The notes beneath the pieces are model-generated. The model searched no databases. It worked only from the letters and a program-made list of their open reading frames with translations, and was not told where the DNA came from. A stretch of DNA of 64,000 nt, from the IMG/VR virus record IMGVR_UViG_3300026290_000001; one strand, written 5' to 3'. Below, in pieces: positions 3,673-50,951 of the stretch. The stretch's first letter is position 1; each line of letters begins with the position of its first letter. Source of the stretch: a virus. The position numbers and the translations under genes are program-made.

Positions 3673-3676
3673 AATT

Positions 3677-27776: not shown

Positions 27777-28349
27777 TTGAGTAGTACAAATAGAAGTGAT
27801 GCACGCAATTATCACATTTCAGATTATTATGTGACTCCAGTAAATAAAATTATTGATTTTATAGATGCTTTTGTAGAAATAGAAGAAGATTTTGAAGGTA
27901 AAATGCTTGATCCTTGTGCAGGAGGAGATTCTAATCATCCAATGAGTTATCCAGAGGCATTTAAGTTATGTGGGTATTTAAATATGGATACTATGGATAT
28001 AAGAGAAGATTCTTTGGCAGATATTAAAACAAATTATCTTACATATGACTGTAAAAATAAATATAATATAATAGTTACCAATCCACCTTTTGGTTTAGCA
28101 AGAGAAATAATAGAAAAAGCATTAGATGATGTTAAGGATAATGGTTTTGTAGTTATGTTATTAAGATTAAATTTTTTTGGTGGTAAGCTTAGAGAAGATT
28201 TATGGGAAAAACAAATGCCTAAATATGCTTTTGTACATAATAGAAGAATGAGTTTTACAGATGATGGAAAAACAGATTCAATTGAATATATGCATTGTGT
28301 ATGGCAGAAGGGATATTACCCTGAATTTACTATGTTAAAAGTGATATAA
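27777..28349 (+). CDS. small putative N6-adenine methyltransferase
   Basis: YYVTP, LDPCAGGDS (motif I-like) and IVTNPPFG (motif IV); TTG start. Confidence 0.5.
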   Translation: MSSTNRSDARNYHISDYYVTPVNKIIDFIDAFVEIEEDFEGKMLDPCAGGDSNHPMSYPEAFKLCGYLNMDTMDIREDSLADIKTNYLTYDCKNKYNIIVTNPPFGLAREIIEKALDDVKDNGFVVMLLRLNFFGGKLREDLWEKQMPKYAFVHNRRMSFTDDGKTDSIEYMHCVWQKGYYPEFTMLKVI

Positions 28350-28680
28350 TTTAAATATGAATATTATAATAAAGGAGCATAATATATGAATGAAATAAAT
28401 AAAATAATTAATTATTTAATTACTATTGGATACGTTATTAAAAATGGAAGTGCATATTTACCTAGCGATAAAGAATTTGAAATTCCTTATGATGTTAGAA
28501 TGACACATTTTTTACACACGAATAAAATTTGTAATTATGAAGTACATGAAATGTAAATAAAAAACATAACCAAAATTCCATTTTATCATGATTTTCAGGA
28601 TGAAGAATCCCAATATACAGGCATCTATTTTTTGATTAATTGACAAAAATATAAAATAAATATAGGAGGAATAATACATA

Positions 28681-28725
28681 TTGTTAGAATTAAATAATTT
28701 TTACATAGGTGAAAATGCGAAATAG
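28681..28725 (+). pseudogene. 15-codon remnant of a methyltransferase 5' end
   Basis: TTG LLELNNFYIGE then stop; matches the first ~30 nt of the genes at 35506 and 40520; lies at the junction with G+C-richer DNA. Confidence 0.45.
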
Positions 28726-28733
28726 ACAGACAC

Positions 28734-29534
28734 ATGGAGAGGAGGAATGACCTGGTGGCGTTACCTTTGTTGATTGCCAAAAAAGAACAGAAGTTAAAAC
28801 AAAACTTATCAATTAAACTTTCAAATGAGAGTTGTTTTGATTTTCTCAAGAGATTGGACAGTAATTCAATATCGCTCATTCTGATTGACCCTCCTTACGG
28901 AGTTTCGAGAGATACAAATTTCGCTTCTGGTGAGGAAACGGGTAAAGATACTGATAGATTTAGAGTGTCTATGGATTTCGGTGATTGGGATTATGATTTT
29001 AATGATTTAGCAGGTGTAATTAAAGAATGTTACAGAGTTCTTAAAAAAGGTGGAACGATGATTTGTTTCTATGACCTCTGGAAAATCACAACTCTTAAAC
29101 AGTATTTTGATGATGCTAAATTTAAGCAACTTAGATACATAGAATGGATTAAGACAAATCCTGTTCCACTTAATAGTAAAACTAATTATCTCACAAATTC
29201 AAGAGAGATTGCCCTTGTTGGTGTAAAAGGTGGGAAACCAACTTTCCATTCAGAATATGATAATGGTATTTATAGTTATCCAATTTGTCACGATAAAGGT
29301 AGATTCCATCCTACACAGAAGCCTTTAGCTCTTATCGAAGATTTAATTGTTAAACATTCTGATGAGGGAGACCTTATTTGTGATTGTTTCTCAGGTTCAG
29401 GCACTACTGCTGTTGCATCTTATAATACCAATCGTAATTTTGTAGGATGTGAATTATCTAAAGAATATTACGACAAATCACTTCTTCGTTTTGAAGAACG
29501 AGGTTTCGATGGAAGGAGTGGTACTGATGAGTAG
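28734..29534 (+). CDS. DNA methyltransferase, beta-class (N6A or N4C)
   Basis: LILIDPPYG (motif IV) N-terminal and FHPTQKP ... DCFSGSGTT (motif I) C-terminal; G+C visibly higher than flanks. Confidence 0.7.
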   Translation: MERRNDLVALPLLIAKKEQKLKQNLSIKLSNESCFDFLKRLDSNSISLILIDPPYGVSRDTNFASGEETGKDTDRFRVSMDFGDWDYDFNDLAGVIKECYRVLKKGGTMICFYDLWKITTLKQYFDDAKFKQLRYIEWIKTNPVPLNSKTNYLTNSREIALVGVKGGKPTFHSEYDNGIYSYPICHDKGRFHPTQKPLALIEDLIVKHSDEGDLICDCFSGSGTTAVASYNTNRNFVGCELSKEYYDKSLLRFEERGFDGRSGTDE

Positions 29535-29726
29535 TGTTGATAAAACTATTCAGGATATGATTAAACGCAGTCCAAAGAGACTGCGACGGGGAGGGGTGAT
29601 CTTATGTTAAAAAAGTGTAACAGGGGGTTGTTTAGATGAATACAGAAAATGCAATGGAGACTGCGGCAATTGTGATTATTCATCAGAGCCCACAAAAGGC
29701 TAATTATCGCAGTTCCATAAAAAGAG

Positions 29727-29755
29727 TTGACAAGCATCTTGACACAGTGTAGTAT
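29727..29755 (+). promoter_or_regulatory. sigma-A-type promoter (TTGACA-17-TAGTAT)
   Basis: Direct reading inside the G+C-richer insert. Confidence 0.45.
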
Positions 29756-29834
29756 AAATACATACCCGTATGTCTATATCCGTACAACCAAGACGGGGGC
29801 TTATTTGGTGGGAATAAAATATTGAGGTGACATA

Positions 29835-30650
29835 ATGGATAGATTTCTAAACCAAATAATTTGCGGCGACAACGTAGAAGTAATGCGACAGATGCCAGAC
29901 AACTGCATAGACCTAACGGTAACTTCACCACCATACGATAATTTGAGAACTTATAACGGATATTCATGGGAATTTGAAGCGGTCGCTAACGAATTGTACC
30001 GCATAACAAAACCGGGTGGCGTGGTTGTGTGGGTAGTCGCCGACGCGACAGTTAAAGGCAGTGAGACAGGTACATCATTTAGACAGGCTCTTTACTTTAT
30101 GGACTGCGGATTTAATTTGCATGACACTATGATTTATGCAAAAAACAGTTATATGCCATTAACGCACAACAGATATGAGCAACAATTTGAATATATGTTT
30201 GTTTTTTCAAAGGGCAAGCCCAAGACGTTTAATCCAATAAAGATTAAGTCACAGACGGCAGGAACAAAGCGAAACCGAGGTGGAAGCAAGGCAAAAGAGA
30301 TGTCATATGCCGAAAGATTAAGAAATGAAAAGACAACTGTAAACGAATACAAGCAAGCACCAAATATTTTTTGGTATGACGTTGGGAAAAACGACAAAAG
30401 CATACACAATGCACCGTTTCCAGAACAGCTCGCAAACGACCACATTATTTCATGGAGTAATGAAGGAGATATTATCTTAGACCCAATGTGTGGTTCTGGC
30501 ACTACTTGTAAAATGGCTTATTTAAACAAAAGAAATTTTATTGGTATTGATATAAGCGAAGAATACATAAATGATATTTGTATACCAAGATTAAATTCTT
30601 ATGGATGGCAACAAAAAGAAAATATAAATATAGGAGGTAAAATAAAATAG
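29835..30650 (+). CDS. DNA methyltransferase, beta-class, SPPY type (probably N4-cytosine); chimeric
   Basis: TSPPYD and DPMCGSGTT; G+C-rich 5' two-thirds, AT-rich 3' end near-identical to the 3' ends of 35506-36345 and 40520-41323. Confidence 0.7.
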   Translation: MDRFLNQIICGDNVEVMRQMPDNCIDLTVTSPPYDNLRTYNGYSWEFEAVANELYRITKPGGVVVWVVADATVKGSETGTSFRQALYFMDCGFNLHDTMIYAKNSYMPLTHNRYEQQFEYMFVFSKGKPKTFNPIKIKSQTAGTKRNRGGSKAKEMSYAERLRNEKTTVNEYKQAPNIFWYDVGKNDKSIHNAPFPEQLANDHIISWSNEGDIILDPMCGSGTTCKMAYLNKRNFIGIDISEEYINDICIPRLNSYGWQQKENINIGGKIK

Positions 30651-31471
30651 CAAAAATTGAATTAGACAAGTATTATACTCCACCTGATTTAGCACAATAC
30701 ATAGTTAATAAAACAAAAGAAATTATAGGTGAAGATAATATTACTGAATATATAGAACCATCAGCAGGAGCAGGGGTGTTTTTAGATTATTTAGATAGAG
30801 AAAATGTTCCTTATTTGGCTTATGATATTGAACCAGAGGACAATAGGATTATTAAACAAGATTTTTTAGAGTTAGAATTAGAGTATAAAAAGGGTAGGTG
30901 TGTGATTGGGAATCCACCATATGGTAAATATATGAAACTTGCTGAACAATTTTATAAAAAGTCTATAGGAATAGGAGATTATATATCATTTATTTTACCA
31001 ATTAGCCAATTTAATAATAATATTAAATTATTTGATTTTGATTTAATATTTAGTGAAAATTTAGGTATTAAAGATTATTCAAATAAAAAAATTCATTGTT
31101 GTTTTAATATTTATAAAAGACCTAGTGGTAATCTTAATAAAAAACCAAATTATAAACTTAAAGAAGTTGAAATTAAAACTTCTCATAGAAAAGCACATCC
31201 TCCAAAAACTAATTTTATAACTAGAGATATTTTTGATTATGATATTAGAATATGTGCATGGGGTTCCTCAATAGGTAAAGTTTGTGAGTATGAAGGGCAA
31301 TATTCAACAGAGATGTGTATTAAAATCAAAAATGAAAAGTATAAAAATATAATTATCGATTTAATAAAAAATGTAAAATGGATTGATGTTTATCCTATGT
31401 TTGGTGCTCCACATATAGATTTATGGCATATTTATAAATACATAAAAGAACAAATACCTGAAATAAATTAA
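30647..31471 (+). CDS. N6-adenine DNA methyltransferase, gamma-class, probable ATA start
   Basis: YYTPPDLAQYIV, EPSAGAGVF (motif I) and GNPPYGK (motif IV); conserved region begins at ATA overlapping upstream TAG (ATAG), 9 nt after AGGAGG; track starts at internal GTG 30776. Confidence 0.6.
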   Translation: MAKIELDKYYTPPDLAQYIVNKTKEIIGEDNITEYIEPSAGAGVFLDYLDRENVPYLAYDIEPEDNRIIKQDFLELELEYKKGRCVIGNPPYGKYMKLAEQFYKKSIGIGDYISFILPISQFNNNIKLFDFDLIFSENLGIKDYSNKKIHCCFNIYKRPSGNLNKKPNYKLKEVEIKTSHRKAHPPKTNFITRDIFDYDIRICAWGSSIGKVCEYEGQYSTEMCIKIKNEKYKNIIIDLIKNVKWIDVYPMFGAPHIDLWHIYKYIKEQIPEIN

Positions 31472-31548
31472 AATACAAATCCCATTCTATAGGGATTTAA
31501 ATCGTGATAAAACAATCGTTTCATGTTGATTTAGAAAGGAGAAAATAT

Positions 31549-32130
31549 TTGAATAAATATTGGGAGCATTTTAAAACAATCACAAAACATAAATGGTATG
31601 TAATGAAAGCATGTTTTAAATCTAAATTATATTGGCAGGGAATAGTACATGATTTAAGTAAGTATTCAATTACCGAGTTCTTCACAAGTGCAAAATATTT
31701 CACAGGAAACAGTTCACCCATTGATGCTGAAAAAAATAAAAATGGTTACTCTTTAGCATGGCAAAATCATAAGGCAAACAATAAACATCATTGGCAATAT
31801 TGGACTGATTTTGAAAATGGAGATTTAATAGTTTTAAAAATGCCAGCCAAGTATTTAGCGGAAATGTTGTGTGATTGGGTGGGAGCAGGTAAGGCTTATA
31901 ATAAATCTATTTGGACTATTGATACATTTAAAGCATGGTATAAAAGCAATATAGATAAAATGATATTACACACAAGTACAAAGGCGTATATTAATTTACT
32001 TATAGAACATGTAATTAACGAACAAGACTTATATGATAATTGGATTAAAATATCAAGAATTAATGAAAATTATATGCTTGATGATTTAGAAGGTTGTTCA
32101 TATCAACCATCAATAAAACTATTAAAATAA
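31549..32130 (+). CDS. hypothetical protein, possible HD-domain phosphohydrolase
   Basis: H ... GIVHDLSKY spacing resembles the HD motif; track ORF 31504 trimmed to TTG after AAGGAG SD. Confidence 0.35.
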   Translation: MNKYWEHFKTITKHKWYVMKACFKSKLYWQGIVHDLSKYSITEFFTSAKYFTGNSSPIDAEKNKNGYSLAWQNHKANNKHHWQYWTDFENGDLIVLKMPAKYLAEMLCDWVGAGKAYNKSIWTIDTFKAWYKSNIDKMILHTSTKAYINLLIEHVINEQDLYDNWIKISRINENYMLDDLEGCSYQPSIKLLK

Positions 32131-32173: not shown

Positions 32174-33475
32174 ATATTAGAAGTAATTTATAAAACAGAA
32201 AAAGGTAGACTTGTTCATGGTGATAATATTGAAGCAATGAGAAAAATTAAAGAAAATTCAGTTGATAGTTGTATATCAGATTTTCCTTATGATTTATCAT
32301 TTATGGGTAAGAAATGGGATACTACAGGAAATTTTTATGAGTGGTGTAAAGATCGAGCAGAACCATTATATAGAATAATTAAGCCGGGAGGTTATGTTTG
32401 TATCTTTGGGCATCCTAAAACTAATCACAGAATGAAGTCAGCTTTTGAAGATGTAGGGTTTAATATAGTTGAAGAAATTGATTGGGTTTATGGAACTGGT
32501 TTTCCTAAGAATCAAGATATAGGAAAATTGTTTGATAAGAAAGCAGGAGCAGAAAGAGAAATTGTTGGATATTTAGATAGAAATGATAGAAAATTACCTA
32601 GTGGCGAAGGTGGTACTCATGGTACGGCACATCAAGATTATTGTAATAATGGTAGAGAAACTATAAATTTATCAATTACTGCACCAGCTACAAATCAAGC
32701 AAAGAAATGGGATGGATGGAAAACATCAGGATTAAAACCAGCACATGAACCAATTACTGTATTTCAAAAACCATTGGAAGGTACTTATATAAATAATATA
32801 AATACATATGGTGTTGGTGGAATGAATATTAATGCTTGTAGGATAGAACATAATGAACCTATTAAAACAACAAATAGAAAACCAAGAAGTGCTACATGGA
32901 ATATGGACACTTGTGGATTTGATAGCACAAACAATACTGTTGCTAGTGCTGATCCAAATGGCAGATTCCCTGCTAATATGATATTTGATTCTTCTATGGG
33001 AGAAGTATTAGATAATCAGAGTGGAATTAGTAAGTCAACGGGTGGAAGTGGAGATAAGAGCAAAGGTGCTTTAGGGGATAGTGTTTATGGAAAATATAAA
33101 AATGAAGAATTATCAGCTAATGCAGGAGGATTAGGAGATTCAAGTGGTGCTAGTAGATATTTCTTAAAGATAGATGCAGAAGATTTTGTACCATTTTTAT
33201 ATTGTCCTAAAGCATCTAAAAAAGAAAAAGGCGAAGGGAATACTCATGTAACTGTTAAACCTAAAGAATTAATAAAATGGCTCATTAAATTAGTTACACC
33301 TATAAATGGAAAAACAATTGATATTACTGCTGGTTCTGGTACACATGGTTTGGCTTGTGAAGAACTTAATAAGAATGAAGGTTATAATCTAAGATGGATT
33401 GATATTGAATTATTAAATACAGAGAAAGAACCTTATTGTGAAATTGCAATGAATAGAATTAAAAATGTAATATAA
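32174..33475 (+). CDS. DNA methyltransferase, beta-class, variant motif IV (DFPY), probable ATA start
   Basis: N-terminal GRLVHGDNIEAM ... SVDSCISDFPYD and C-terminal DITAGSGTHG; Gly/Ser-rich central insert; frame open upstream of track ATG 32237 with no canonical start after AAAGGAG. Confidence 0.55.
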   Translation: MLEVIYKTEKGRLVHGDNIEAMRKIKENSVDSCISDFPYDLSFMGKKWDTTGNFYEWCKDRAEPLYRIIKPGGYVCIFGHPKTNHRMKSAFEDVGFNIVEEIDWVYGTGFPKNQDIGKLFDKKAGAEREIVGYLDRNDRKLPSGEGGTHGTAHQDYCNNGRETINLSITAPATNQAKKWDGWKTSGLKPAHEPITVFQKPLEGTYINNINTYGVGGMNINACRIEHNEPIKTTNRKPRSATWNMDTCGFDSTNNTVASADPNGRFPANMIFDSSMGEVLDNQSGISKSTGGSGDKSKGALGDSVYGKYKNEELSANAGGLGDSSGASRYFLKIDAEDFVPFLYCPKASKKEKGEGNTHVTVKPKELIKWLIKLVTPINGKTIDITAGSGTHGLACEELNKNEGYNLRWIDIELLNTEKEPYCEIAMNRIKNVI

Positions 33476-33606
33476 AAATATACAGAAAAATACAAATATA
33501 CATACTATATATAGTGGCATTAAGCAATTCATACCACAATATATAGAAAAATATTTGAATAAAATTCGGGTTTTGTCACAAAATTATTAAATAGAAAGGA
33601 GAATAT

Positions 33607-34387: not shown

Positions 34388-34552
34388 ATGACTTTTGGAT
34401 TTACTTATTTTATCTCTAAAAGGGATAAAAGCGCAGAAAGAATAATTAATATTGAAGCAGAGTCGGAAGAACAGGCATTTGATAAATACATAAAGTTTTT
34501 AAGTGAGCATCATATGGTTATGGGTGAATCACTTGGAGAAAAGTTAAAATAA
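34388..34552 (+). CDS. small hypothetical protein (54 aa), not in track
   Basis: ATG after GAGGTGAAA SD. Confidence 0.3.
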   Translation: MTFGFTYFISKRDKSAERIINIEAESEEQAFDKYIKFLSEHHMVMGESLGEKLK

Positions 34553-34607
34553 AAACAACACAAAAAATCAATTTGGTTCAAACTTTTACAAAAAACACAA
34601 TATAAAA

Positions 34608-35378
34608 ATGAAAGGAGAATTAGTATATAAGTTGCAATTATACTATAAAGATGAATACATAAGATTATTTCAAGGTGATTGTTTAGAAGTAATGGATAGG
34701 TTAATTGAGAAAGGTGTTAAATTTGATGCAATAATTACTGATCCTCCTTACGGGACTACAGCTTGTAAATGGGATAGTATCATACCATTTGATAGTATGT
34801 GGGAAAGATTAAATAAGTTAATAAAGGATAATAGTGCAATAGTTTTATTTGGTAGTGAACCATTTAGTAGTCATTTAAGAGTAAGTAATATTAAAAATTT
34901 TAAATATGATTGGATATGGAATAAAAAGAAGGGAGGAAGTCCTTTACTTTCTAAAATACAACCAATAAAAATATTTGAAATTATATCTGTTTTTGGGAAA
35001 GGGAAAATAAATTATTATCCAGTAATGGTTGATAGAGATAAACCTAAATCAAGGGGTAAGAATAGAGGAACTATTAGTGATACAACAAATAATTGTTTTT
35101 CAGAAGATAAGATTTATACGCAATATTATCCTAAAGCAATTATAGAATTTTCAAATGCTAGTCAAAAAAATAAATTTCACCCAACTCAAAAACCAGTGGA
35201 GCTAATGGAATATCTTATTAACACATATACACAAGAGAATGAAATTATATTAGATTTTACTTGCGGTTCTGGTACAACATTATTAGCATCAAGAAATCTT
35301 AAAAGAAAATGTATCGGTATTGAATTGGAAGAAAAATATTGTGAAATAACTAAACAAAGATTAGAAAAAGCAAGTTAA
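34608..35378 (+). CDS. DNA methyltransferase, beta-class (DPPY)
   Basis: ITDPPYGT and FHPTQKP ... DFTCGSGTT; true start may be in-frame TTG near 34632 because AAAGGAG lies just after the track ATG. Confidence 0.7.
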   Translation: MKGELVYKLQLYYKDEYIRLFQGDCLEVMDRLIEKGVKFDAIITDPPYGTTACKWDSIIPFDSMWERLNKLIKDNSAIVLFGSEPFSSHLRVSNIKNFKYDWIWNKKKGGSPLLSKIQPIKIFEIISVFGKGKINYYPVMVDRDKPKSRGKNRGTISDTTNNCFSEDKIYTQYYPKAIIEFSNASQKNKFHPTQKPVELMEYLINTYTQENEIILDFTCGSGTTLLASRNLKRKCIGIELEEKYCEITKQRLEKAS

Positions 35379-35505
35379 ATATAAAAACAGCATAAAATTC
35401 TAGTTTGGTTCAAAAATAGACGCCTAAAGATTGGGATTCTTAGAGTATGGATTTTTCAAAATAATTATTAAAATAAAAATATAAATATTGGAGGTAAATA
35501 TATAA

Positions 35506-36345
35506 TTGATAGAATTAAATAATTTTTATATAGGGGAATCTGTTAATTTTATGCGTAAAAATATTCCTGATAATTTTGTAGATTTAACAGTTACAAGTCC
35601 ACCTTATGATGATTTAAGAAAATATAATGGATTTATTTTTGATTATGAAACAATTTTTAAAGAACTTTTTAGAATAACTAAAAATGGTGGAATTGTTGTA
35701 TGGATAATAGGAGATAAGACAGAAAAAGGAACGGAAAGTCTAACAAGTTTTAAACATGCTTTAAGTGCTAAAAATATAGGATTTAATGTTCATGATACAA
35801 TGATATGGTTAAAACCTAATCCAACACCAACTGATCCTAAATGTTTAAGATATTATAATGCTTTTGAATACATGTTCGTTTTTTCTAAAGGAAAACCAAA
35901 AACATGTAATTATATAAAAGAAAAATCTAAAAATACAGGTAAAGAATTTGGTTCAGCTCCAATGAAAAGAGTAGATGGAACTAACAGAGATGACAGAACT
36001 GAAAAGTTAAAGGGTATAAAAATAAAAGACTATAAAATTAAAAGTAATGTATGGGAATGTGCTATAGGTTCAGGGGTATCTAAAGATAAAATTGCTTTTA
36101 AACATCCAGCAATTTTCCCTGAAAAATTAGTTGAAGATCACATAATTTCTTGGACTAATAAAAATGATATTGTACTAGACCCTATGTGTGGTTCGGGTAC
36201 AACGTGCAAAATGGCATGGTTAAACAAGCGTAATTTTATTGGAATTGATATGAGTGAAGAATACATAAATAACATTTGTATACCAAGATTAAATACATAT
36301 GGTTGGGAACAGAATAAAGAAAACGTATTTCAAGATTGCCTATAA
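35506..36345 (+). CDS. DNA methyltransferase, beta-class, SPPY type (paralog group)
   Basis: TSPPYDD and DPMCGSGTT; TTG start; high nucleotide similarity to 40520-41323. Confidence 0.7.
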   Translation: MIELNNFYIGESVNFMRKNIPDNFVDLTVTSPPYDDLRKYNGFIFDYETIFKELFRITKNGGIVVWIIGDKTEKGTESLTSFKHALSAKNIGFNVHDTMIWLKPNPTPTDPKCLRYYNAFEYMFVFSKGKPKTCNYIKEKSKNTGKEFGSAPMKRVDGTNRDDRTEKLKGIKIKDYKIKSNVWECAIGSGVSKDKIAFKHPAIFPEKLVEDHIISWTNKNDIVLDPMCGSGTTCKMAWLNKRNFIGIDMSEEYINNICIPRLNTYGWEQNKENVFQDCL

Positions 36346-36419
36346 ATTGGGCTTTATAATCTATAAAATCATTACCAAATTTGAGTTTGGTTCAAAGTTA
36401 TAGAAAGGAGAAATTATAA

Positions 36420-37256
36420 ATTATCAATACATATTATAAAAATAAATATGCAAGGATATATCAATGTGACAATTTAGAATTATTAAAACAATTACCAAAT
36501 GAATACATAGATTTAATTTATTGTGATATTTTATACAACACTGGTAAGAAATTTAAGGATTATGATGATCAATTAGGCACAACACAAGAAGCAATTAAAT
36601 GGTATAAACCAAGATTAATAGAAATGAAAAGAGTATTAAAGGAAACAGGATCAATTTATTTACATATGGATTTTAGATTAATACATTATTTAAAAGTAAA
36701 AATGGATGAAATATTTCAATTAAATAATTTTAGAAATGAGATTATATGGGATAAAGGATTTAGGGGTACGGAGCAAAAAGAGTTTTATCAACATTCGCAT
36801 GATTCAATATTATTTTATACAAAAACTAATAACTACATATGGAATAAAGTTTTTTGTGAATATGCTGATAAAAATATGAGTAGGTATAATAAAACTGATG
36901 AAGATGGAAATAAATATGCTTTAATTAAAAGAAAAAGAACAGACGGAAGTGTTTATTATGGCAAAACATATCCACAATCAGAAGGAAAGAAAGCAGACGA
37001 TGTATTTAGAGATATAAAAACTTTTTCATCAACAGCTAAAGAAAGAATTGGTTATGATACTCAAAAACCAAAGGCATTATTAGAACGTATTATTAAAGCA
37101 TCTTCTAATGAAGGAGATATAGTAGCAGACTTCTTTATGGGATCAGGCACTACTGGCGAAGTGGCATTAGAATTAGGTCGTAAATTTATTGGTTGTGATA
37201 TTGGGGAAAGGGCATGTGAGATTACTAAAAATAGATTAGATAAAATTATAATATAA
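36420..37256 (+). CDS. methyltransferase-like protein with degenerate motif IV (DILY) and no canonical start; possible pseudogene
   Basis: [27 protein letters not shown] plus C-terminal YDTQKP ... DFFMGSGTT; only ATT/ATC codons follow AAAGGAG before track ATG 36624. Confidence 0.45.
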
Positions 37257-42014: not shown

Positions 42015-42584
42015 TTGAGTAAAAAATATAACATTATATATGCTGACCCACCTTGGAAACCTACTGAGAGTGGTACAGGAGTTAGAGGTACGGCAGATTT
42101 AAAAAAACGATATCAAGGTGTAATGAGTATAGAAGAAATATGTGCTTTACCAGTAAAAGATATATGTGAAGATACATGCATACTGTTTTTATGGGTTACA
42201 TTTCCAAGATTACAAGAAGGAATGAAAACTATTGAAGCGTGGGGATTTCAATATTATGGGTTGGGATTTGATTGGATTAAAACTAATCTTAAAAGTGGAA
42301 CTCCATTTTGGGGAATGGGTTATTATACTAGACAAAATTCAGAAATATGCTTAATAGGAGTAAAAAAGGATAAAAATAAAAGAATTAAACCACAAGTTAA
42401 AAATATTTTATCTGTAGTTCATTCACCAAGAAGAGAACATAGTCAAAAACCTGATGAAATAAGAGATTACATAGTTAAAATTTGTGGTGATTTACCTAGA
42501 ATAGAATTATTTGCTAGACAAAAAGTTGAAGGTTGGGACGCATGGGGCAATGAAATTGAAAATGATATTATATTAAATACATAA
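42015..42584 (+). CDS. MT-A70-family N6-adenine methyltransferase
   Basis: IIYADPPW (DPPW motif) with downstream FLWV and QKP; TTG start. Confidence 0.7.
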   Translation: MSKKYNIIYADPPWKPTESGTGVRGTADLKKRYQGVMSIEEICALPVKDICEDTCILFLWVTFPRLQEGMKTIEAWGFQYYGLGFDWIKTNLKSGTPFWGMGYYTRQNSEICLIGVKKDKNKRIKPQVKNILSVVHSPRREHSQKPDEIRDYIVKICGDLPRIELFARQKVEGWDAWGNEIENDIILNT

Positions 42585-42667
42585 AATAAAAATTATCATA
42601 AAAGTCTGAATTGGTTTAGAGTTAATAAAAATGAAAAATAAAAATAGGGAGGTATCTAATACATAAA

Positions 42668-43438
42668 TTGATTGAATTGAATACTATTTATAATGAAGAT
42701 TGTATTAACTTTATGAAGAAACTACCTAATGAATCTATTGATTTAATAATTGCCGATCCACCTTATTTTGAAATATGCGGAGAGTTTGATTTTATATGGA
42801 AATCATTAGATGACTATTTAAATTGGTCTAAAGAATGGATTTTACAATGTTATAATATTTTAAAACCATCAGGCAGTATTTATATATGGGGTAAAATTGG
42901 ATTTGGTAAGGGGTATTCTTTATTTAAAATTGCAGATTGGATAGAGAATGAAAAACTGTTTATTATAAAAAATTGGATTACTCAACGTAATACAAGAGGG
43001 AGAGGAACAAAGAAAGGGTATATAGAGGCAAGAGAAGAACTTCTGTTTTGCGTAAAGTCTAATCAATGTACTTGGAATATTGCTTATACCGAAGAAAAAT
43101 CTAATAGAAAAGATTTAGGATTTGATGGCAAACCTAGAAAAAATGAGTTTAAAAGATGCTCTGATGTATGGATTGATATAGCTGAAGCAAGTCAATCAAG
43201 TAATGAAAGATTTAAAACATTTAATGGTAAAACTTTTCCAACAGTTAAAGCACAAAAATTATGTAATAGAATTATTTTGGCAAGTTCTAATGAAAATGAT
43301 TTAGTTTATATTCCCTTTGCTGGTTCTGGAAGTGAAATTGAATCTTGTATAAAAAATAAAAGAAATTGGATTGCGACAGAAATTAATAATCAATACATAA
43401 ATGAAATCATTGAACCTAGAATTAAACGTATAATATAA
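42668..43438 (+). CDS. DNA methyltransferase, beta-class (DPPY)
   Basis: IIADPPYFE and C-terminal IPFAGSGSE; TTG start with conserved 5' end. Confidence 0.7.
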   Translation: MIELNTIYNEDCINFMKKLPNESIDLIIADPPYFEICGEFDFIWKSLDDYLNWSKEWILQCYNILKPSGSIYIWGKIGFGKGYSLFKIADWIENEKLFIIKNWITQRNTRGRGTKKGYIEAREELLFCVKSNQCTWNIAYTEEKSNRKDLGFDGKPRKNEFKRCSDVWIDIAEASQSSNERFKTFNGKTFPTVKAQKLCNRIILASSNENDLVYIPFAGSGSEIESCIKNKRNWIATEINNQYINEIIEPRIKRII

Positions 43439-43665
43439 AAAATAAAAATCATGATAAAATAAGTGTTTTATCATAATATTGCAGAAATCAGTATTTTGGT
43501 AGGTTATCAACAAATACACACAACAAAGCCCTAAATGGTGGGAATGAAAAGGTATTTTAAGTGGATTAACTCTACCAAAGTAAAAAATATTTGAACCAAA
43601 TGCGTCTTTTATTCAAAGTTTATTAAAAACATAAAATAAATATAAAGAAAAGAGGATTATATATA

Positions 43666-44370
43666 TTGAAACATATTTTAAGTTTTAGTGGCGGCAAAGA
43701 TTCAACCGCAATGTTACTCATAATGTTAGAGAGAGAATATCCAATAGATGAAATTATATTTTGCGATACTGGTAAAGAATTTCCTGCTTTATATAGACAT
43801 ATTGATAAAGTTGAAGAATACATAAACCAACCTATAACTAGGCTTAAAGGAGAAAAAACTTTTGATTATTGGATGTTCGAACATGAAAAAACCAAAGGTA
43901 AACATTTAGGTAAAAAGGGTTATGGTTGGGCAGACACCAGAGCAAGATGGTGTACAGCATATTTTAAGCGTGAAATTATGAATAAATACATAAAAGAAAA
44001 ATATAATAATGAATATAAAGAGTATGTAGGTATTGCTTATGATGAGTTTAAAAGATATGAGAAAACACAAAATGGTCATAAAAAATATCCTTTAATTGAA
44101 TGGAAAATAACTGAAGGTATGGCTCTAAAATATTGCTATGATAAAGGATTTGATTGGGAAGGAGTATACACACATTTTGAACGGGTATCTTGCTGGTGCT
44201 GCCCTTTAAAAAATCAGAGAGAATTATATATGCTTTATTCTTTCTATCCTGAATTATGGGCAGAACTCAAAGATATGGATAGTAGAGCATGGAACCAGTT
44301 TAAAAGAGATTACAGTGTTCAGGATTTAGAAGATAAATTTAGGGGATGGCAAGACATAATAAAAATATAA
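43666..44370 (+). CDS. PAPS-reductase-family PP-loop ATPase-like protein
   Basis: ILSFSGGKDSTAML PP-loop near N-terminus and C-terminal CWCCP cysteine cluster. Confidence 0.6.
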   Translation: MKHILSFSGGKDSTAMLLIMLEREYPIDEIIFCDTGKEFPALYRHIDKVEEYINQPITRLKGEKTFDYWMFEHEKTKGKHLGKKGYGWADTRARWCTAYFKREIMNKYIKEKYNNEYKEYVGIAYDEFKRYEKTQNGHKKYPLIEWKITEGMALKYCYDKGFDWEGVYTHFERVSCWCCPLKNQRELYMLYSFYPELWAELKDMDSRAWNQFKRDYSVQDLEDKFRGWQDIIKI

Positions 44371-44644: not shown

Positions 44645-44764
44645 TTTATAATTTTTGTGTTTTACGAACCCCTAAATAATGGGGTTTGTGAAACCAAAAA
44701 TCATGATAAAACTCATCTTTTGTGTTGATATTAAAATTTAAATATAAGGAGGTAATATTATTAA

Positions 44765-45517
44765 TTGTTTGAATTAAATAAAATATATTGTGTTGATTGT
44801 TTAGAAGGGATTAAAAATATAGAAAGTGGCAGTATTGATATGGTATTTTTTGATCCTCCTTTCAATTTAAACAAAGATTATGGAATTAAAATTAATGATA
44901 ATTTAATAAAAGAAAAATATTTAAACTGGCAGTATGAAATATTAAAAGAATCTATTAGAGTGCTATGTGATAATGGGGCAATAATTTATCATACTATCCC
45001 AAAATGGGCATTTAAAATAGCTAATTATCTTGATGAACAAGGAATGGTTTTTCAAAATTGGATTTGTTGGAATGAATCAGGATCAACACCTACCCCTTCA
45101 AGATTATATCCTAAACATTATCCTATTCTTTGGTTTTCTAAGAATAAACTCAAAACTTTTAATAAACAATATATTCCCATAGAAAGATGCAGAAAGTGCA
45201 ATACTACTATAAAAGATTATGGTGGCAAATTTAAAGATTTAAAAGAAATAGATGGTGAAAAAGTAACTGTTTTAAGTGATGTATGGGACGATATACATAG
45301 AATAAGACATAATAAAAATAAAAATAGAAAATCAAATGAACTTCCCGAAATTTTAATGGAAAGAATAATTAACTTATATTCTAAAGAAAATGATATAATT
45401 TTAGACCCATTTTCAGGTAGTGGGACAACATGTAAAATAGCAAAGAAACTAAATAGACAATATATTGGATTTGAAATTAATCCTGAATACATAAAAATCT
45501 CAAAAGAACGTATTTAA
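44765..45517 (+). CDS. DNA methyltransferase, beta-class (DPPF)
   Basis: VFFDPPFN and DPFSGSGTT; TTG start. Confidence 0.7.
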   Translation: MFELNKIYCVDCLEGIKNIESGSIDMVFFDPPFNLNKDYGIKINDNLIKEKYLNWQYEILKESIRVLCDNGAIIYHTIPKWAFKIANYLDEQGMVFQNWICWNESGSTPTPSRLYPKHYPILWFSKNKLKTFNKQYIPIERCRKCNTTIKDYGGKFKDLKEIDGEKVTVLSDVWDDIHRIRHNKNKNRKSNELPEILMERIINLYSKENDIILDPFSGSGTTCKIAKKLNRQYIGFEINPEYIKISKERI

Positions 45518-45859: not shown

Positions 45860-45972
45860 TTTAATAAGAAAAATACAAATCCCATTATATCGGACTTCAT
45901 TTTTATAAAAATCATGATAAAACTTGTCTTTTGTCATGATATTAAAACAAAAATAAATATGGAGGTTAAAAT

Positions 45973-47394
45973 ATAATTAAATTAAATAAGTTTGCATTAG
46001 TACAATTAACTCCAAAAGATATGCGAAGCCAAGATAGTATAAATTTAGGATTAGAAATTATATCTGAAATAGTTAAAAAACAAGGTTGGCAATTAGATAC
46101 ATATAAATTCGGAGATAAAATTCAAGATGTTAATTCATATGATATTATAGGGTTTAGTTTATTCTATTTTACACAAATGTTAAATTTAGTTCCATTCCTA
46201 AAGAGTAATAATATTAAACCATTAAGTAGTAAAAGAAACAATCAACCACTATTATTAGCTGGCGGTCAAGGTATTCAAAATCCTAAACCAATTAGTAAAT
46301 TTATTGATGTATTTTGTATGGGTGAGGGTGAGGGGGTTTTGGAATATATCTTAGAAAATTATAAAAATAAAAATATTTTATCAAACCATAAGTCTTTGTA
46401 TATACCAAATATAAATGATAATTTTATATTCAACTCAATAAAAGATGTTGATTCTAAACCTATAATTTATGGTAAAAATAGCATGATAGAATTAACGAGG
46501 GGATGTAAAAATAGATGTAAGTTTTGTCAGTATGGATGGACAAATGGTAAATATCGAGAAAAAAACATCGAACTAGTAAAACAACAAATATTAGAGGTTA
46601 AAGATAAAGGCATTAAAAATATTAACTTGTTAAGTTGTAATTTGGGTGGTTATTCTAAGATAAATGAAGTTCTTGATTTTTGTATAGAAGAAAATATTAG
46701 ATTAATGAATACCGATATGAGAATTGACGAATATAGTGAAGAAATAGCTATAAAATTAGACCTACTAAAAGTGAGAACTCTAAAAGTTGGAGTAGAAAGC
46801 TTTTCTGATCAAACACGAATTGGTATTAATAAGAATATTTCAAAAATACAATTAGATACTTTTATTGACAGAGCTTTGAAGCATAATATATCAAATTTAC
46901 ATTTTTATTTAATATACGGACTTCCAAACGAAGAAAACTATAATGAATGGTTTAATTATATGGAATACATAAAAAATAGAATAAAATCTGTTGATAGAAA
47001 TATAAGAATTGAATTTAGTATTACTAATTTTGAACCAGCAATATATACACCCTTTGAAAAAAGTCCTTTAATTAATTTCCAAGACAAGCATAAATTTATG
47101 AGAGAATATTTAATAAAACAAGAAGAATTGGGTTATATAAAACAACCCGCACAAACAAAAGATTATAAAAATAGTCATGGAAGATTAGGCAGAAAAGAAC
47201 GAAGTTATAATATTGGAATGTGGTTACTACATGGGGACGAAACTGTAGGGGATGTGTTATATGAATTAAACATTAAAGGAATAGGTAGGAGTATAAATGA
47301 AAAGATTTATAATCAAATTTATAAAATATGCCAATCAAAAACTGATGTTTATCAAATAAGAAACATTCAAGATTTAAATGAAAATATATGGTGA
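45973..47394 (+). CDS. radical SAM protein with N-terminal B12-binding-like domain, probable ATA start
   Basis: TRGCKNRCKFCQYGW (CxxxCxxC); N-terminal FALVQLTP ... LGLEIISEIVKKQGW fits the cobalamin-binding-domain pattern; track ATG 46021 has no SD, ATA lies 7 nt after GGAGGTT. Confidence 0.55.
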   Translation: MIKLNKFALVQLTPKDMRSQDSINLGLEIISEIVKKQGWQLDTYKFGDKIQDVNSYDIIGFSLFYFTQMLNLVPFLKSNNIKPLSSKRNNQPLLLAGGQGIQNPKPISKFIDVFCMGEGEGVLEYILENYKNKNILSNHKSLYIPNINDNFIFNSIKDVDSKPIIYGKNSMIELTRGCKNRCKFCQYGWTNGKYREKNIELVKQQILEVKDKGIKNINLLSCNLGGYSKINEVLDFCIEENIRLMNTDMRIDEYSEEIAIKLDLLKVRTLKVGVESFSDQTRIGINKNISKIQLDTFIDRALKHNISNLHFYLIYGLPNEENYNEWFNYMEYIKNRIKSVDRNIRIEFSITNFEPAIYTPFEKSPLINFQDKHKFMREYLIKQEELGYIKQPAQTKDYKNSHGRLGRKERSYNIGMWLLHGDETVGDVLYELNIKGIGRSINEKIYNQIYKICQSKTDVYQIRNIQDLNENIW

Positions 47395-47470
47395 TGTCCA
47401 TGCCTATAAATTGGGATTCTCAACACTCAAAAACATGATAAAACTAGTTTTTGGTCATGAAATTAAATGC

Positions 47471-47525: not shown

Positions 47526-49397
47526 ATGAGTGAAATAGAAAATCTCAAACAACAATTAGATTACCATGATGATTTGTATTACAATCAAGACGATCCTGAA
47601 TTATCTGATGTGGAATATGATGCTTTAAAACAAGAATATCTTAATTCAGTTAATCAACAAGAATACAACTATATACCTGGGCAAGCACAATTTAAAAAAT
47701 TCACACACACATTCCCTATTAAATCATTGGGGAAAATAAATACTATTGAACAAGCAAGAAAAGAAATTGAAAGGTTATATCCAGTAGTTATTGAACCTAA
47801 ATATGATGGATTAACCTTAGTGTTATATGGTGAAGGGAAAGTAGTAACTAGAGGTAGTGGTCAAATCGGAGAAGATGTTACTGCAAATGCTTCTAGATTT
47901 ATGCGTACTTATAATCCATATGGTTTACCTATTCGTGGCGAAGCAATTATGCCTATATCAGTGTTCCATGAAATTAACAAACAAAGGGATGTAGAAGGTA
48001 AGGAATTATTTAAAAATCCAAGAAATGCAATAGCAGGTATTCTTAGAAATAAAGATAATAGTAATATCCCTAAAGGGTTAAGATTTATTGCTTATGAAAT
48101 CGTAGGATCAGCAGAATCCCATATTCAACAATTATTAGAACTTAAAAAATACTATGATATACCTGAAGCAGATACTATTTGGAATTATAGTGAAATTGAT
48201 GATGCAGTAAAATTCATAGAAAACTTTGATCGTTCTAAATTAGATTATGAAATTGATGGATTAGTTATTAAATCTAATAAGACAAATGCATTAGATATTT
48301 TTGGTGAAACTGAACATCATCCGAACCATAGTGTTGCCTACAAGTTTCCTTCTCAGGGAGAATGGACTGTATTAAAATCTATAACTTGGCAAACTGGTCG
48401 CACGGGCAGAATTACCCCTGTGGCAGAATTGGAACCAGTAGATATTATGGGAAGTACAATCGAACGTGCTACATTGCATAATATAGGGTATATTAGTGGT
48501 TTAGATTTACAGCTATATGATAAGGTGTTTTTAGTGAAAAGTAATGATATTATTCCCGCTGTGATTAAATGTGAGCATACTAAAAATAGTAAACCTATTG
48601 AAATTATAAACAAGTGTCCTTCATGTGGAAGTGAATTAAAAATTATCAATGATCAATTATTCTGTATTAATGATGATTGTTTGGCAAAATTATTATATAG
48701 AACTTCTCATATGGTTAGTCGAGATGCCCTTAATATAGATGGTCTTAGTGAGCAAACCATTTTAAAAATGATTGAAGCAGGATATATTAATAAACCTTGG
48801 GATATATTTGATGTTACTGAAACAGAAATATTAAAATTAGATGGTTTTGCAAAGAAATCTGCCAAAAAAATATATGAAAATATTCAAAATGCAAGAAATT
48901 GTGATTTTGATAGAGCAATTTACGCTTGTGGAATTGAACTGATAGGCAGAAAGGTTAGTAAAGATATTGCAAAAGAATTTGAGACTATTGATAATTTGTT
49001 ATATTGTTTAAGACGTGATGATGCTAGAAGTATATTAGGTATGATTGATGGTATTGGTAATACCACTATAGATAGTTTATTGAATAACGTTAATATTTTA
49101 GAAAATATGGTGGATTATTTAAGTATTAGTAGTGTTGAAAAGAAAGAAACAACTTTTAAATCTCTTGAAAATATTACATTTGTAGTTACCGGAAATGTAG
49201 AAACATTTAAAAACCGTAAAGAGTTAGAAGAATTGATCACTTCTCTTGGTGGTAAGTTAAGTGGATCAGTTTCAAGTAAAACTAATTATTTAATCAACAA
49301 CGATATTACCTCCAATTCTGGTAAGAATAAAAAGGCAAACGAATTAGGGGTAGAAATTATTAGTGAAATACGATTTAATGAAATGATAGGTAGGTAA
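47526..49397 (+). CDS. ligA: NAD-dependent DNA ligase
   Basis: N-terminal LDYHDDLYYNQDDPELSDVEYDALKQEY, adenylylation motif EPKYDGL, Cys4 zinc finger CPSCGSEL...CINDDC, C-terminal BRCT-like VVTGNVETF. Confidence 0.85.
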   Translation: MSEIENLKQQLDYHDDLYYNQDDPELSDVEYDALKQEYLNSVNQQEYNYIPGQAQFKKFTHTFPIKSLGKINTIEQARKEIERLYPVVIEPKYDGLTLVLYGEGKVVTRGSGQIGEDVTANASRFMRTYNPYGLPIRGEAIMPISVFHEINKQRDVEGKELFKNPRNAIAGILRNKDNSNIPKGLRFIAYEIVGSAESHIQQLLELKKYYDIPEADTIWNYSEIDDAVKFIENFDRSKLDYEIDGLVIKSNKTNALDIFGETEHHPNHSVAYKFPSQGEWTVLKSITWQTGRTGRITPVAELEPVDIMGSTIERATLHNIGYISGLDLQLYDKVFLVKSNDIIPAVIKCEHTKNSKPIEIINKCPSCGSELKIINDQLFCINDDCLAKLLYRTSHMVSRDALNIDGLSEQTILKMIEAGYINKPWDIFDVTETEILKLDGFAKKSAKKIYENIQNARNCDFDRAIYACGIELIGRKVSKDIAKEFETIDNLLYCLRRDDARSILGMIDGIGNTTIDSLLNNVNILENMVDYLSISSVEKKETTFKSLENITFVVTGNVETFKNRKELEELITSLGGKLSGSVSSKTNYLINNDITSNSGKNKKANELGVEIISEIRFNEMIGR

Positions 49398-49400
49398 AAT

Positions 49401-49640
49401 ATGAACGATAAAATCTATATTATACCTAGAGAAGATAAACCAATAAAATTCATTATTGAAGAATTACCATGTCCTATCTGTTCACAAATTGGATATGATT
49501 TTAGATGTGAACATGCCAAAAGTAGTTTTAAAGATTTAATATATACAATATCTTGTACTAATTTTAATCATTGTGAAAATGCAGAGAATATATCATTGAA
49601 ATTCAATGAGTTAATACAAGATGAGTTGTTAACCACTTGA
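49401..49640 (+). CDS. small zinc-finger-like protein
   Basis: CPICSQ ... CEH. Confidence 0.45.
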   Translation: MNDKIYIIPREDKPIKFIIEELPCPICSQIGYDFRCEHAKSSFKDLIYTISCTNFNHCENAENISLKFNELIQDELLTT

Positions 49641-49950
49641 CAGATTAGTAAAATAAATATATAATAAAATTACAACAAAATATCAAAAATATCAATTTTA
49701 CAAATCCCAATATATAGCCATTCTTGAAGGTGAAAATCAACACCAAATCTGCGTTTTGTCACAACTTTTATGAATGCTAATATACAGGGCTTGAGAATTG
49801 CTATTTTAAGCGAAAATACGGTAAAATCAATGGTTTTAAGTAATTACTAAAATTAGCTTTACATAAAGTCCAATATATAGGCGTTTATAATTCTAAAAAT
49901 CGTGACAAAAGTGTCATTTTGTTTAGAAATTATAGAAAGGGGAATTAAAT

Positions 49951-50136
49951 ATGGATAAAAATTTTTTATTGCTTTGTTCATATGAGAATATGGAAGGAAT
50001 GCTAGAAAGAGATTTTGAATGGTATCAAACAGAAGAAAACATGAGAGAAAGCATTGAAGATAAAAAAGAATTTATAAAAGATTTTACGGTCAATAAAGCA
50101 ATAGAAATATTACAAGTTAGAAATATAGAAATATAA
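49951..50136 (+). CDS. hypothetical protein
   Basis: Track ORF with AAAGGGGAA SD. Confidence 0.4.
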   Translation: MDKNFLLLCSYENMEGMLERDFEWYQTEENMRESIEDKKEFIKDFTVNKAIEILQVRNIEI

Positions 50137-50192
50137 TTTAAATAATAAACCTTAGTAATAAAAACATTAAAAGGAGATGAATTATACATAAT

Positions 50193-50951
50193 TTGATTGA
50201 ATTGAATAAAATTTATAATGAAGATTGTATAGGTGGAAGGGGTATGTGTTTAATCCCAAATGAATCAATCGATATGATTTTATGTGATCTTCCGTATGGA
50301 ACTACGATGGCGAAATGGGATAAGATTATCAACCAAGAAGAATTGTGGACGCAGTATAGAAGGATAATTAAACCCAGAGGGGCAATTGTACTAACTTCTA
50401 GTCAGCCATTTTCAAGTGCTTTAATATATAAAAACCTAGACATTTATAGGCATTCATGGGTTTGGGAAAAGAACAATTCTGCAGATTATGCCAATGCAAA
50501 TTGTAGACCAATGAAAATACATGAGGAAGTATTGGTATTTTCATTCGCACATGATGTTGCTCCTGCTAAAGTAAAGATGATTTATAATCCACAGGGGCTA
50601 ATACCAGTTAATAAGCCCAATCGGAGAGGTAGACATAGTGAAACAACAGGTCATTTTAGAGAGAATGAGTACATACAAAAATACACAAACTATCCTACTA
50701 CAATATTGAGGTTTGCTTCAGATAAAGATAAAATTCACTCTACACAAAAACCTGTGGCGTTGTTTGAATATCTTATAGAAACATATAGTAATGAAGGTGA
50801 TTTGGTTTTAGATAATTGTATAGGCTCAGGCACAACAGCGATTGCGTGTATAAACATCAAACGTAAATTTATAGGGTTTGAAAATGACAATACATATTTT
50901 GAGTTAGCAAACAAAAGAATAGAAGAACATAAATGTAAAATAAATATTTGA
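50193..50951 (+). CDS. DNA methyltransferase, beta-class, variant motif IV (DLPY)
   Basis: ILCDLPYGT and HSTQKP ... DNCIGSGTT; TTG start; 5' 40 nt near-identical to 38166 and 42668. Confidence 0.65.
   Translation: MIELNKIYNEDCIGGRGMCLIPNESIDMILCDLPYGTTMAKWDKIINQEELWTQYRRIIKPRGAIVLTSSQPFSSALIYKNLDIYRHSWVWEKNNSADYANANCRPMKIHEEVLVFSFAHDVAPAKVKMIYNPQGLIPVNKPNRRGRHSETTGHFRENEYIQKYTNYPTTILRFASDKDKIHSTQKPVALFEYLIETYSNEGDLVLDNCIGSGTTAIACINIKRKFIGFENDNTYFELANKRIEEHKCKINI

Follow-up and report, generated by a model that had tools for sequence, protein, structure and literature searches.

A 64,000-nt stretch of viral DNA (IMG/VR record IMGVR_UViG_3300026290_000001, hereafter the window) contains, between positions 27777 and 50951, an island of 16 genes that belong to methyltransferase families. 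We read this island as an arsenal of orphan DNA methyltransferases that would act against restriction in a temperate phage of 135-138 kb, and we give this reading, which draws on comparisons of sequences and modelled structures, a probability of roughly 70%. A sequence-only reading had already pointed to the methyltransferase genes; a second methylase locus, swapping of recognition regions, recombination scars, a repeated intergenic motif and weak start codons are additions of the present analysis.

Methyltransferase genes of the island

All 16 of the methyltransferase-family open reading frames (ORFs) that the sequence-only reading had placed in about 23 kb were recovered at their predicted positions on the plus strand, and they were numbered M01 to M16 in genome order. 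The claim of at least four structural classes held as well: beta, alpha (D12), gamma-like, phage Dam (PF05869) and MT-A70 enzymes were all present. Every motif IV variant that had been quoted was found in the motif check, and motifs IV and I were intact in 16 of 16 proteins, in the order expected for each class. The profile searches that had been proposed as a check bore out the family assignments. Fourteen of the ORFs scored above the Pfam gathering scores (11 for N6_N4_Mtase, PF01555, and one each for D12, PF02086, Dam, PF05869, and MT-A70, PF05063), while M01 and M04 fell below threshold and were supported by PHROG matches.

The 11 PF01555 ORFs scored 73-186 bits against a cutoff of 26.7, and all 11 had the circularly permuted order of the beta class, with motif IV preceding motif I. 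Eight of these carried DPPY, DPPF or SPPY as motif IV: DPPY in M02 (28755-29534, E = 5e-38), M06 (34608-35378, E = 7e-34), the 330-aa M09 (38166-39158, E = 4e-20) and M14 (42668-43438, E = 2e-33), DPPF in M15 (44765-45517, E = 3e-53), and SPPY in the paralogs M03 (29835-30650, E = 1e-42), M07 (35506-36345, E = 2e-43) and M11 (40520-41323, E = 5e-39). The other three had the variant forms DFPY (M05, 32174-33475, a 433-aa protein with a long Gly/Ser-rich central insert, E = 2e-22), DILY (M08, 36420-37256, E = 9e-55) and DLPY (M16, 50193-50951, E = 3e-29). M16 was 38% identical to M06, and its solved relatives were DpnA and M.MboIIA. The closest solved proteins to the SPPY trio were N4-cytosine methylases; for M03 the best solved relatives were DNA cytosine-N4 methyltransferases (8s9n, E = 3e-20), and M03 is probably an enzyme of this kind.

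Two of the variant motifs, those of M08 and M05, were compared with their homologs. The DILY of M08 aligned with the DPPY of M.RsrI, and among the homologs DILY was found in 102 of the 120 closest and DVLY in 10. M05 had 19,938 representative homologs; DPPY was present in 131 of 150, whereas the seven closest clusters, defined at 50% identity, shared DFPY. DILY and DFPY are thus conserved variants of their clades rather than signs of decay.

Three single-member classes complete the set above the gathering scores. M10 (39721-40461) is an alpha-class D12 (Dam-type) adenine methyltransferase (PF02086, E = 7e-27, 95.3 bits against a cutoff of 22), with FVGGGS at residue 36, DPPY at residue 170 and the solved relatives 7m6b (E = 2e-32) and DpnM. 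M12 (41429-41884) is a small phage-type Dam whose NPPY lies at residue 67 (PF05869, E = 4e-32, 111.8 bits against a cutoff of 28.1); it also matched the NCBIfam family TIGR01712, phage_N6A_met, at E = 1e-23, where its 83.5 bits lie below the equivalog cutoff of 97. M13 (42015-42584) belongs to the MT-A70 family and carries its DPPW at residue 11 (PF05063, E = 5e-30, 105.1 bits against a cutoff of 23.9); MT-A70 proteins are also its solved relatives (7f4r, E = 6e-22).

The two gamma-like proteins, M01 (27777-28349; PHROG 799, E = 1e-44) and M04 (30647-31471; PHROG 799, E = 3e-12; phrog_5172, E = 2e-29), were not recovered by curated-family profiles of the gamma class (M.TaqI/Eco57I-like): they reached 17.8 and 18.1 bits against the Pfam Eco57I cutoff of 25.3 and had no match in NCBIfam, and sequence searches of solved structures with either protein were uninformative. 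The gamma-class order of motif X (xYTP), motif I (xPxxGxGxF) and motif IV (NPPY/F), with a Rossmann-type class I fold and, after it, a recognition domain, was found. M01 is a small amino-methyltransferase in which the motif I sequence LDPCAGG is followed by NPPF, and its gene is 75% identical in nucleotide sequence to a 'DNA methyltransferase' gene of phage phiCD211 that lies just upstream of the PolIII alpha gene there. M04, with NPPY, is a member of a family that numbers more than 2,700 proteins, all of them unnamed and none with a Pfam domain, in which the motifs DKYYT, EPSAGxGxF and GNPPY are invariant. A confident AlphaFold model of M04 built on the family alignment (predicted local distance difference test, pLDDT, 89.6; predicted template modelling score, pTM, 0.83) matched M.BseCI, M.TaqI and CamA.

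The sequence-only reading had found no restriction endonuclease partner for these genes, and the searches agreed: the other ORFs of the island contained no nuclease domain in Pfam or PHROGs, and the 14 small island ORFs (at most 144 aa) had no match to a nuclease family in either database. None of the methyltransferase genes thus has a recognisable cognate endonuclease gene beside it, as expected of orphans.

Methyltransferase genes occupy 12.6 of the 23.2 kb of the island, and the whole phage carries 17-19 of them, the count depending on the strain. Such a density had been called unusual even for phages, and comparison with relatives bears this out, as the syntenic site carries only one to three methyltransferases in them. 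INPHARED (50,697 records) was searched by tblastn with M15, a query that matches 10 PF01555 genes within the island itself. The search found 1,131 places, spread over 1,012 records (an average of 1.12 per record), with a maximum of three in any of the top 60. In a survey of 8,848 gut phages, 72% of the methylase-carrying phages had a single such gene (PMC10477858).

Paralogs, the intergenic motif and start codons

Most of the 16 proteins are at most 30% identical to one another and therefore represent distinct lineages. Two families of paralogs stand out, and one of them extends beyond the island. Roughly 8 kb before the window begins there is a second methylase locus, encoded on the opposite strand and adjoining the integrase gene. 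In a 138.1 kb strain of the phage (contig L024, 132-2487, minus strand) it holds three tandem PF01555 genes that resemble M06 and differ in their central regions; with M06 they form a four-member family. In a 135.3 kb strain (contig L023, 1-2487) there is one methylase, followed by different genes that include one for a CoiA-type nuclease-domain protein. Between the two strains identity is 99.995% as far as a breakpoint, which lies within the methylase's conserved motif I (CGSGTT). The second family is the SPPY trio, in which M07 shares 65% identity with M11 and 55% with M03 and the middle of the protein varies.

Identity was distributed unevenly along the paralogs. At the N-terminal (motif IV) end it was 80-100% in the M06 family, 83-86% between M07 and M11, and about 46-60% between M03 and either of these; at the C-terminal (motif I) end it was about 70-100% in both families. 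The central region of about 90 residues was only 5-40% identical among the paralogs of both families. In beta-class enzymes the target-recognition region sits in the central part of the protein. The pattern looks like the signature of a change in specificity through replacement of the recognition region within a conserved framework.

Scars of recombination were found around M02 and M03. At 28680-28724 there is a fossil 5' end of an SPPY-type gene, consisting of a ribosome-binding site, TTG, 11 codons (LLELNNFYIGE) and a stop; over 86 nt it matches the M07 start region at 73% identity. Just after it, from 28740 to 30500, runs a segment of higher GC content (0.33-0.53 against about 0.26) that covers M02, a 300-nt spacer and most of M03; the spacer has its own sigma-A-like promoter, TTGACA-17-TAGTAT, at 29727. 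The last 150 nt or so of M03 are again low in GC and are 83-88% identical to M11, which makes M03 a chimera. The simplest reading would be that a foreign segment of 1.8 kb recombined into a resident SPPY gene. The GC content at third codon positions (GC3) of M02 is 0.23, above the resident level, whereas most of the other methylase genes have a GC3 of 0.11-0.17, equal to that of the core genes, and are for this reason taken to be long-term residents. Exchange among phages was seen at M15, the coding sequence of which is 100% identical at the nucleotide level in an otherwise different, mosaic phage (contig L003), with unrelated DNA on its left flank.

A motif of about 40 nt, AAAAWCATnAYMAAA-N6-TTTKRTYAnGAWWTTAWA, recurs between the genes of the island. 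It was identified by direct-repeat analysis and inspection of spacers; 23 copies were curated in an alignment, from which an nhmmer profile was built. All copies are on the plus strand, at 26246-26282, 27436-27472, 28558-28599, 31498-31536, 33552-33586, 34550-34588, 35382-35419, 36364-36402, 37255-37293, 37612-37648, 38045-38083, 39178-39217, 40468-40503, 41358-41389, 41958-41997, 42588-42625, 43443-43483, 44695-44735, 45906-45946, 47427-47467, 49732-49771, 49894-49934 and, last, 51084-51122. There are thus at least 23 copies, all within 26.2-51.1 kb. The profile added one weak copy inside this region; in the rest of the window, and in 10 kb of adjoining genome on either side, its matches all had E above about 0.04. 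The copies lie 12-180 nt upstream of start codons, often abutting the ribosome-binding site, and often a short palindrome (for example CCCAATATATTGGG) with Ts behind it lies next to them. The motif also occurs in the mosaic relative L003, and the switch between diverged and 100% identical sequence in the comparison with this phage falls inside the copy at 44695-44735.

Several identities for the motif were considered and rejected. Pairing and covariation were no better than in shuffled alignments (489 of 500 scored as high), so that an RNA or DNA hairpin was not retained, and no known RNA family was found in an Rfam search of the motif. Hairpins were also sought across the whole window in a crude scan, but the AT-rich DNA made its output too noisy. 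A sigma-70 promoter was also rejected, as no hexamers fit and the copies abut ribosome-binding sites; separate sigma-A-like promoters were found at 26286, 29727 and 45545 and about 10 nt past the motif copy that ends at 47467.

The start codons of the methylase genes are unusual. Only M03 and M06 begin with ATG, and the ATG of M06 has no Shine-Dalgarno sequence. M02 probably begins with GTG at 28755, 9 nt past AGGAGG; an alternative ATG at 28734 is without a ribosome-binding site. Nine genes (M01, M07, M09, M10, M11, M13, M14, M15 and M16) begin with TTG, often at a Shine-Dalgarno spacing of 10-14 nt, and for two of these an ATA is an alternative (42659, 6 nt past GGAGG, in place of 42668 in M14; 50184 in place of 50193 in M16). 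Three begin with ATA (M04, 9 nt past GGAGG; M05; M12, 8 nt past GGAGG), and M08 begins with an ATT placed right behind a TAA stop and 8-9 nt past AGGAG. The ratio of ATG to other starts was 2:14 among the methylases and 74:11 among the other genes (Fisher p = 8e-9). The remaining island enzymes follow the methylases, with TTG in the DUF5662 and phosphoadenosine phosphosulfate (PAPS) reductase genes and ATA in the radical S-adenosylmethionine (SAM) gene, and the small island ORFs and genes elsewhere in the window have ATG. An ATT start was also seen at position 27557 of the window.

The ATA starts at 30647, 32174 and 41429 and the ATT start at 36420, which the sequence-only reading had adopted, were confirmed, as without them the proteins would lack conserved N-terminal motifs. 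Starting at the first canonical codon would remove conserved motifs from M04, M08 and M12, and from M05 a conserved N-terminal stretch of 21 residues upstream of motif IV. The four genes have an in-frame stop at most 24 nt upstream and a good Shine-Dalgarno sequence 8-10 nt before the start, and the N-termini of homologs align to the ATA or ATT codon. Among close homologs of M04, isoleucine is present at the start position in one third, and some may truly start at an ATG three codons upstream. In a relative (contig L009), the 73% identical ortholog of the radical SAM gene begins with ATT (about 9962), with an unchanged Shine-Dalgarno spacing, and the peptide encoded ahead of the first ATG is conserved between the two through synonymous changes. 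ATA starts were also found in a D12 methylase gene of L003 (about 4823) and in an M04-family gene of contig L020 (about 10010). Because they are conserved in orthologs and recur in other phages, the ATA and ATT starts do not look like recent damage, and we infer that there may have been selection for low expression. In public gene calls M08, M12 and M16 are shortened and the N-terminus of M04 is missed.

The phage, its host and the neighbouring genes

The window has a GC content of about 28%, and every gene in it is on the plus strand. It was 100% identical to the IMG/VR contig 3300009647_000134 (64,930 bp) in both stretches compared, about 41 kb in total, and several independent metagenomes yielded contigs of 99.6, 135.2, 135.3 and 138.1 kb that carry its DNA at a nucleotide identity of 99.99-100%. 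As it is found nearly identical on contigs of 135-138 kb, the complete element is a phage of about that size. A tyrosine integrase is encoded just outside the window start, so the phage is probably temperate. The replication module comprises a sliding clamp, a YorF-family protein, primase-like and RecJ-like proteins, PolIII alpha and a RecD2-like helicase.

The phage is a distant relative of phiCD211 and SPbeta. Its PolIII alpha shares 48% identity with the enzyme of [Clostridium] innocuum phage Amboise; the gene order of RtcB and methyltransferase, then PolIII alpha, helicase and primase, is similar in the 131 kb Clostridium difficile phage phiCD211; and the SPbeta-type proteins YorF, YorH, YonB and YonD are present in relatives. 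A megablast search of INPHARED with the island found no close relative, only 75% identity over 375 nt to phiCD211. The host would be a low-GC gut or digester bacterium, a low-GC Firmicute and probably one of the Clostridia. Searches aimed at the host found no tRNA genes, only matches of about 30% for PolIII alpha among plasmids, and, in a genome scan, a mis-binned 98% fragment and a relative in a Clostridiales metagenome-assembled genome of 47% GC.

Four enzymes other than methyltransferases are encoded within the island, all on the plus strand. The gene at 31549-32130, with a TTG start that matches the N-termini of homologs, encodes a DUF5662 protein, the one uncharacterised island product of intermediate size. 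Its model is all-helical and resembles HD domains, with no PD-(D/E)XK, HNH or GIY-YIG fold, and on these grounds the possibility that it is a hidden restriction enzyme was discarded. At 43666-44370 is the gene for a PAPS-reductase/PP-loop protein (PF01507, E = 4e-11; phrog_424, E = 1e-49), which is 85% identical in L003 (9157-9882) and is paired with M15 there as well. The protein is distantly similar to DndC, and its linkage to M15 is shared by two phages that otherwise differ. The radical SAM protein (45973-47394) is of the B12-binding type (PF19864 and PF04055; similar to the uncharacterised family TIGR03960) and might be another nucleic-acid-modifying enzyme; its 73% identical ortholog in L009 (9962-11374) is also flanked by methyltransferases. 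Between M15 and M16, at 47526-49397, an ATG-started gene encodes an NAD-dependent DNA ligase (PF01653, PF03120, BRCT).

Just upstream of the island, on the same strand, are genes for RtcB (22024-23253) and an ATP-dependent RNA ligase (26355-27437, TIGR02306-like), which look like tRNA-repair counter-defence and would fit a counter-defence region.

Further genes of the window were noted in passing. A 362-aa protein (7671-8756) has a GmrSD N-terminal (DUF262) domain, with no C-terminal nuclease domain detected; this N-terminal domain occurs in modification-dependent type IV restriction enzymes. A 149-aa ORF (18573-19022) has the glycine motif of class I SAM-dependent methyltransferases and a weak, below-threshold match to Methyltransf_32 (E = 4e-5), and was left out of the count of DNA methylases. 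The PolIII alpha gene (59729-63061) is directly preceded by a gene with a faint LAGLIDADG match (58893-59732). In one relative (contig L014, 98% identical) PolIII alpha is interrupted at 3345-4223 by an insertion of about 0.9 kb with a 293-aa ORF, and in another (contig L015, 10001-14605) it is split into three ORFs, which suggests introns, inteins or homing elements.

Proposed function, alternatives and known systems

Several palindromes are strongly depleted in the window. Among 4-mers that contain GC, observed/expected ratios were 0.43 for AGCT, 0.41 for GGCC, 0.64 for GATC and 0.67 for both TGCA and GTAC, and GAATTC was observed 8 times against 27 expected. The non-palindromes CTTA/TAAG were also low (z = -9). 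A protective function for the methylases and a host rich in restriction systems, both of which the sequence-only reading had proposed, would be consistent with this avoidance of palindromes and with the nearby RNA-repair genes.

In the mechanism that we propose, the enzymes would use SAM during lytic growth to methylate newly replicated phage DNA at many short sequences, about 13 of them producing N6-methyladenine and the three SPPY enzymes N4-methylcytosine, and packaged genomes would be protected in advance from the type I-III restriction systems of the next strain infected. From the sequence, the repertoire appears to have been assembled by exchange of methylase cassettes with other phages through crossovers in the 40-nt motif. 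It appears to have been diversified by recombination of foreign genes into resident ones via conserved catalytic motifs and by tandem duplication with replacement of the central target-recognition region. Translation would be held low by TTG, ATA and ATT starts and by long or absent Shine-Dalgarno spacing; little enzyme may be needed, and 16-19 methylases at full strength could be costly or toxic.

Several points weigh against this reading. The best structural matches of the catalytic domain of M04 are the RNA m6A methylases METTL5, Erm and KsgA; the DNA enzymes align with the model across longer stretches than these do, and from this and the genomic context we infer that DNA may be the substrate of M01 and M04. 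Initiation at ATA or ATT is about 100-fold weaker than at ATG in model bacteria, and some of the four genes that depend on these codons could have little expression or be inactive. A heavily methylated phage would also be open to attack by methylation-dependent (type IV) nucleases. Restriction endonucleases are hard to spot by sequence, and small unannotated ORFs may hide some.

An alternative that we consider unlikely is that the methylases are mainly epigenetic regulators of phage replication, packaging or gene timing, or of the lysogen chromosome. The phage is temperate, judging by its integrase, a second methylase cluster lies beside that gene on the lysogeny strand, and in some phages Dam-type enzymes control packaging and replication. 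A regulatory role would account for one or two enzymes, however, not 16-19 with diverse and rapidly swapped specificities; the turnover of recognition regions and the exchange of cassettes among strains are the signature of an arms race, and the island is part of the lytic replication region and shares its strand with the replication genes. Even less probable is a gene graveyard, in which much of the island would consist of decaying, acquired methylases that contribute little. The four or five genes without any ATG, GTG or TTG start, the non-canonical motif IV of three genes, the clear fossil at 28680 and the shortening of several genes by public gene callers could all be read in this way, but the frames are intact in 16 of 16 genes, with no frameshifts, all family-invariant residues are present where checked, and GC3 is fully ameliorated. 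The variant motifs are conserved across many homologs, moreover, and the ATA and ATT starts, with well-spaced Shine-Dalgarno sequences, recur in 73%-identical orthologs and in other phages.

The least likely of the alternatives is that some or many of the methylases belong, as in chloroviruses, to restriction-modification or exclusion systems borne by the phage, the other half of which would be unrecognised nucleases that degrade host DNA or exclude competing phages. About 25% of chlorovirus methyltransferases have adjacent nucleases (PMC7019647), and candidates for such partners could be sought among the several small unannotated ORFs between the methylase genes, in the CoiA-type nuclease-domain gene of L023 near the second locus, outside the window, and in the GmrSD N-terminal domain protein at 7671-8756. 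Apart from the annotated enzymes, however, no ORF of the island exceeds 144 aa, none matches a nuclease family in Pfam or PHROGs, the fold of the DUF5662 protein does not resemble a restriction enzyme, and most methylase genes directly adjoin other methylase genes.

If the enzymes of the proposed arsenal are active, they would be among the densest sets of methyltransferases seen in a bacterial virus and a source of perhaps 16-19 new DNA specificities, including those of the Pfam-less M04 family and of the DILY and DFPY enzymes. The island would also offer a natural example of how such a repertoire grows, through exchange of cassettes at linkers, capture of foreign genes and replacement of recognition regions. 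The recurrent ATA and ATT starts suggest deliberate low-level expression, and because standard annotation truncates genes with these starts, surveys are likely to undercount or mis-model phage methyltransferases. Sets of such methylases could be used to pre-methylate DNA for the transformation of genetically intractable Clostridia-like gut bacteria. A broader and much more tentative idea is that the island is an organised, evolvable 'specificity library', with a 40-nt linker that would label every cassette and provide the crossover site for trade among phages, conserved catalytic ends that would allow recognition regions to be swapped and whole genes captured, and AUA/AUU/UUG starts as a translational throttle on the island enzymes; this would be a general design of large temperate Firmicute siphophages, overlooked so far because the genes are truncated or missed by gene callers.

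The island is an extreme case of a known strategy, anti-restriction by orphan methylases, with three unusual additions: recognition-region swapping and gene capture via conserved motifs, a cassette-linker motif, and the systematic use of weak or non-AUG starts. In Helicobacter and Mycoplasma, target-recognition domains reportedly move among restriction-modification methylases; the conserved catalytic framework, the exchanged central regions and the strain-variable copy number are shared with the island. Those are cellular type I and type III systems, however, whereas the enzymes here are orphan beta-class, type II-like proteins in a phage genome.

The orphan methylases of other phages, such as T4 and P1 Dam, those of lactococcal 936-type phages (PMC4190342) and those of the gut survey (PMC10477858), belong to the same families, PF01555, D12 and phage Dam, and likewise stand alone without a nuclease and are presumed to serve self-protection from restriction. 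The island differs from these in its 16 genes within 23 kb, its swapped recognition regions, its cassette linkers and its weak starts. Fusobacterium phage FNU1 was considered as a methylase-rich parallel and dropped, as its paper lists only about three. Among viruses, the nearest parallel encountered was chlorovirus NY-2A (PMC7019647), whose genome of 369 kb has 18 predicted DNA methyltransferases, a very large repertoire that includes many orphans. NY-2A is a eukaryotic algal virus, however, with both 5-methylcytosine and N6-methyladenine enzymes, the genes are scattered, at a density per kb of genome about 2.5-fold lower, and about a quarter of its methyltransferases have partner nucleases, which are used in the degradation of host DNA (PMC7019647).

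The intergenic motif has its nearest counterpart in the promoter early stem-loop (PeSL) cassettes of T4-type phages, which mediate modular shuffling (PMC2839356, PMC4122927). In both cases a short repeated intergenic motif flanks the variable genes of a plastic accessory region and junctions fall within the motif, on the evidence of one junction for the island. The sequences and the phage groups are unrelated, and PeSL elements are promoter-terminator cassettes, whereas the island motif has no covariation-backed hairpin. The problem of countering many restriction systems at once is also solved by the SPbeta-group Bacillus phages, with the multispecific C5-cytosine methylases M.SPRI and M.Phi3TI (cited in PMC12707154); these are likewise large temperate phages of Firmicutes and come from a related group. 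In those phages several target-recognition domains are fused in one C5 enzyme; no C5 methyltransferase was seen in the window, and the island phage instead carries many separate N6A/N4C enzymes, each with a single recognition region.

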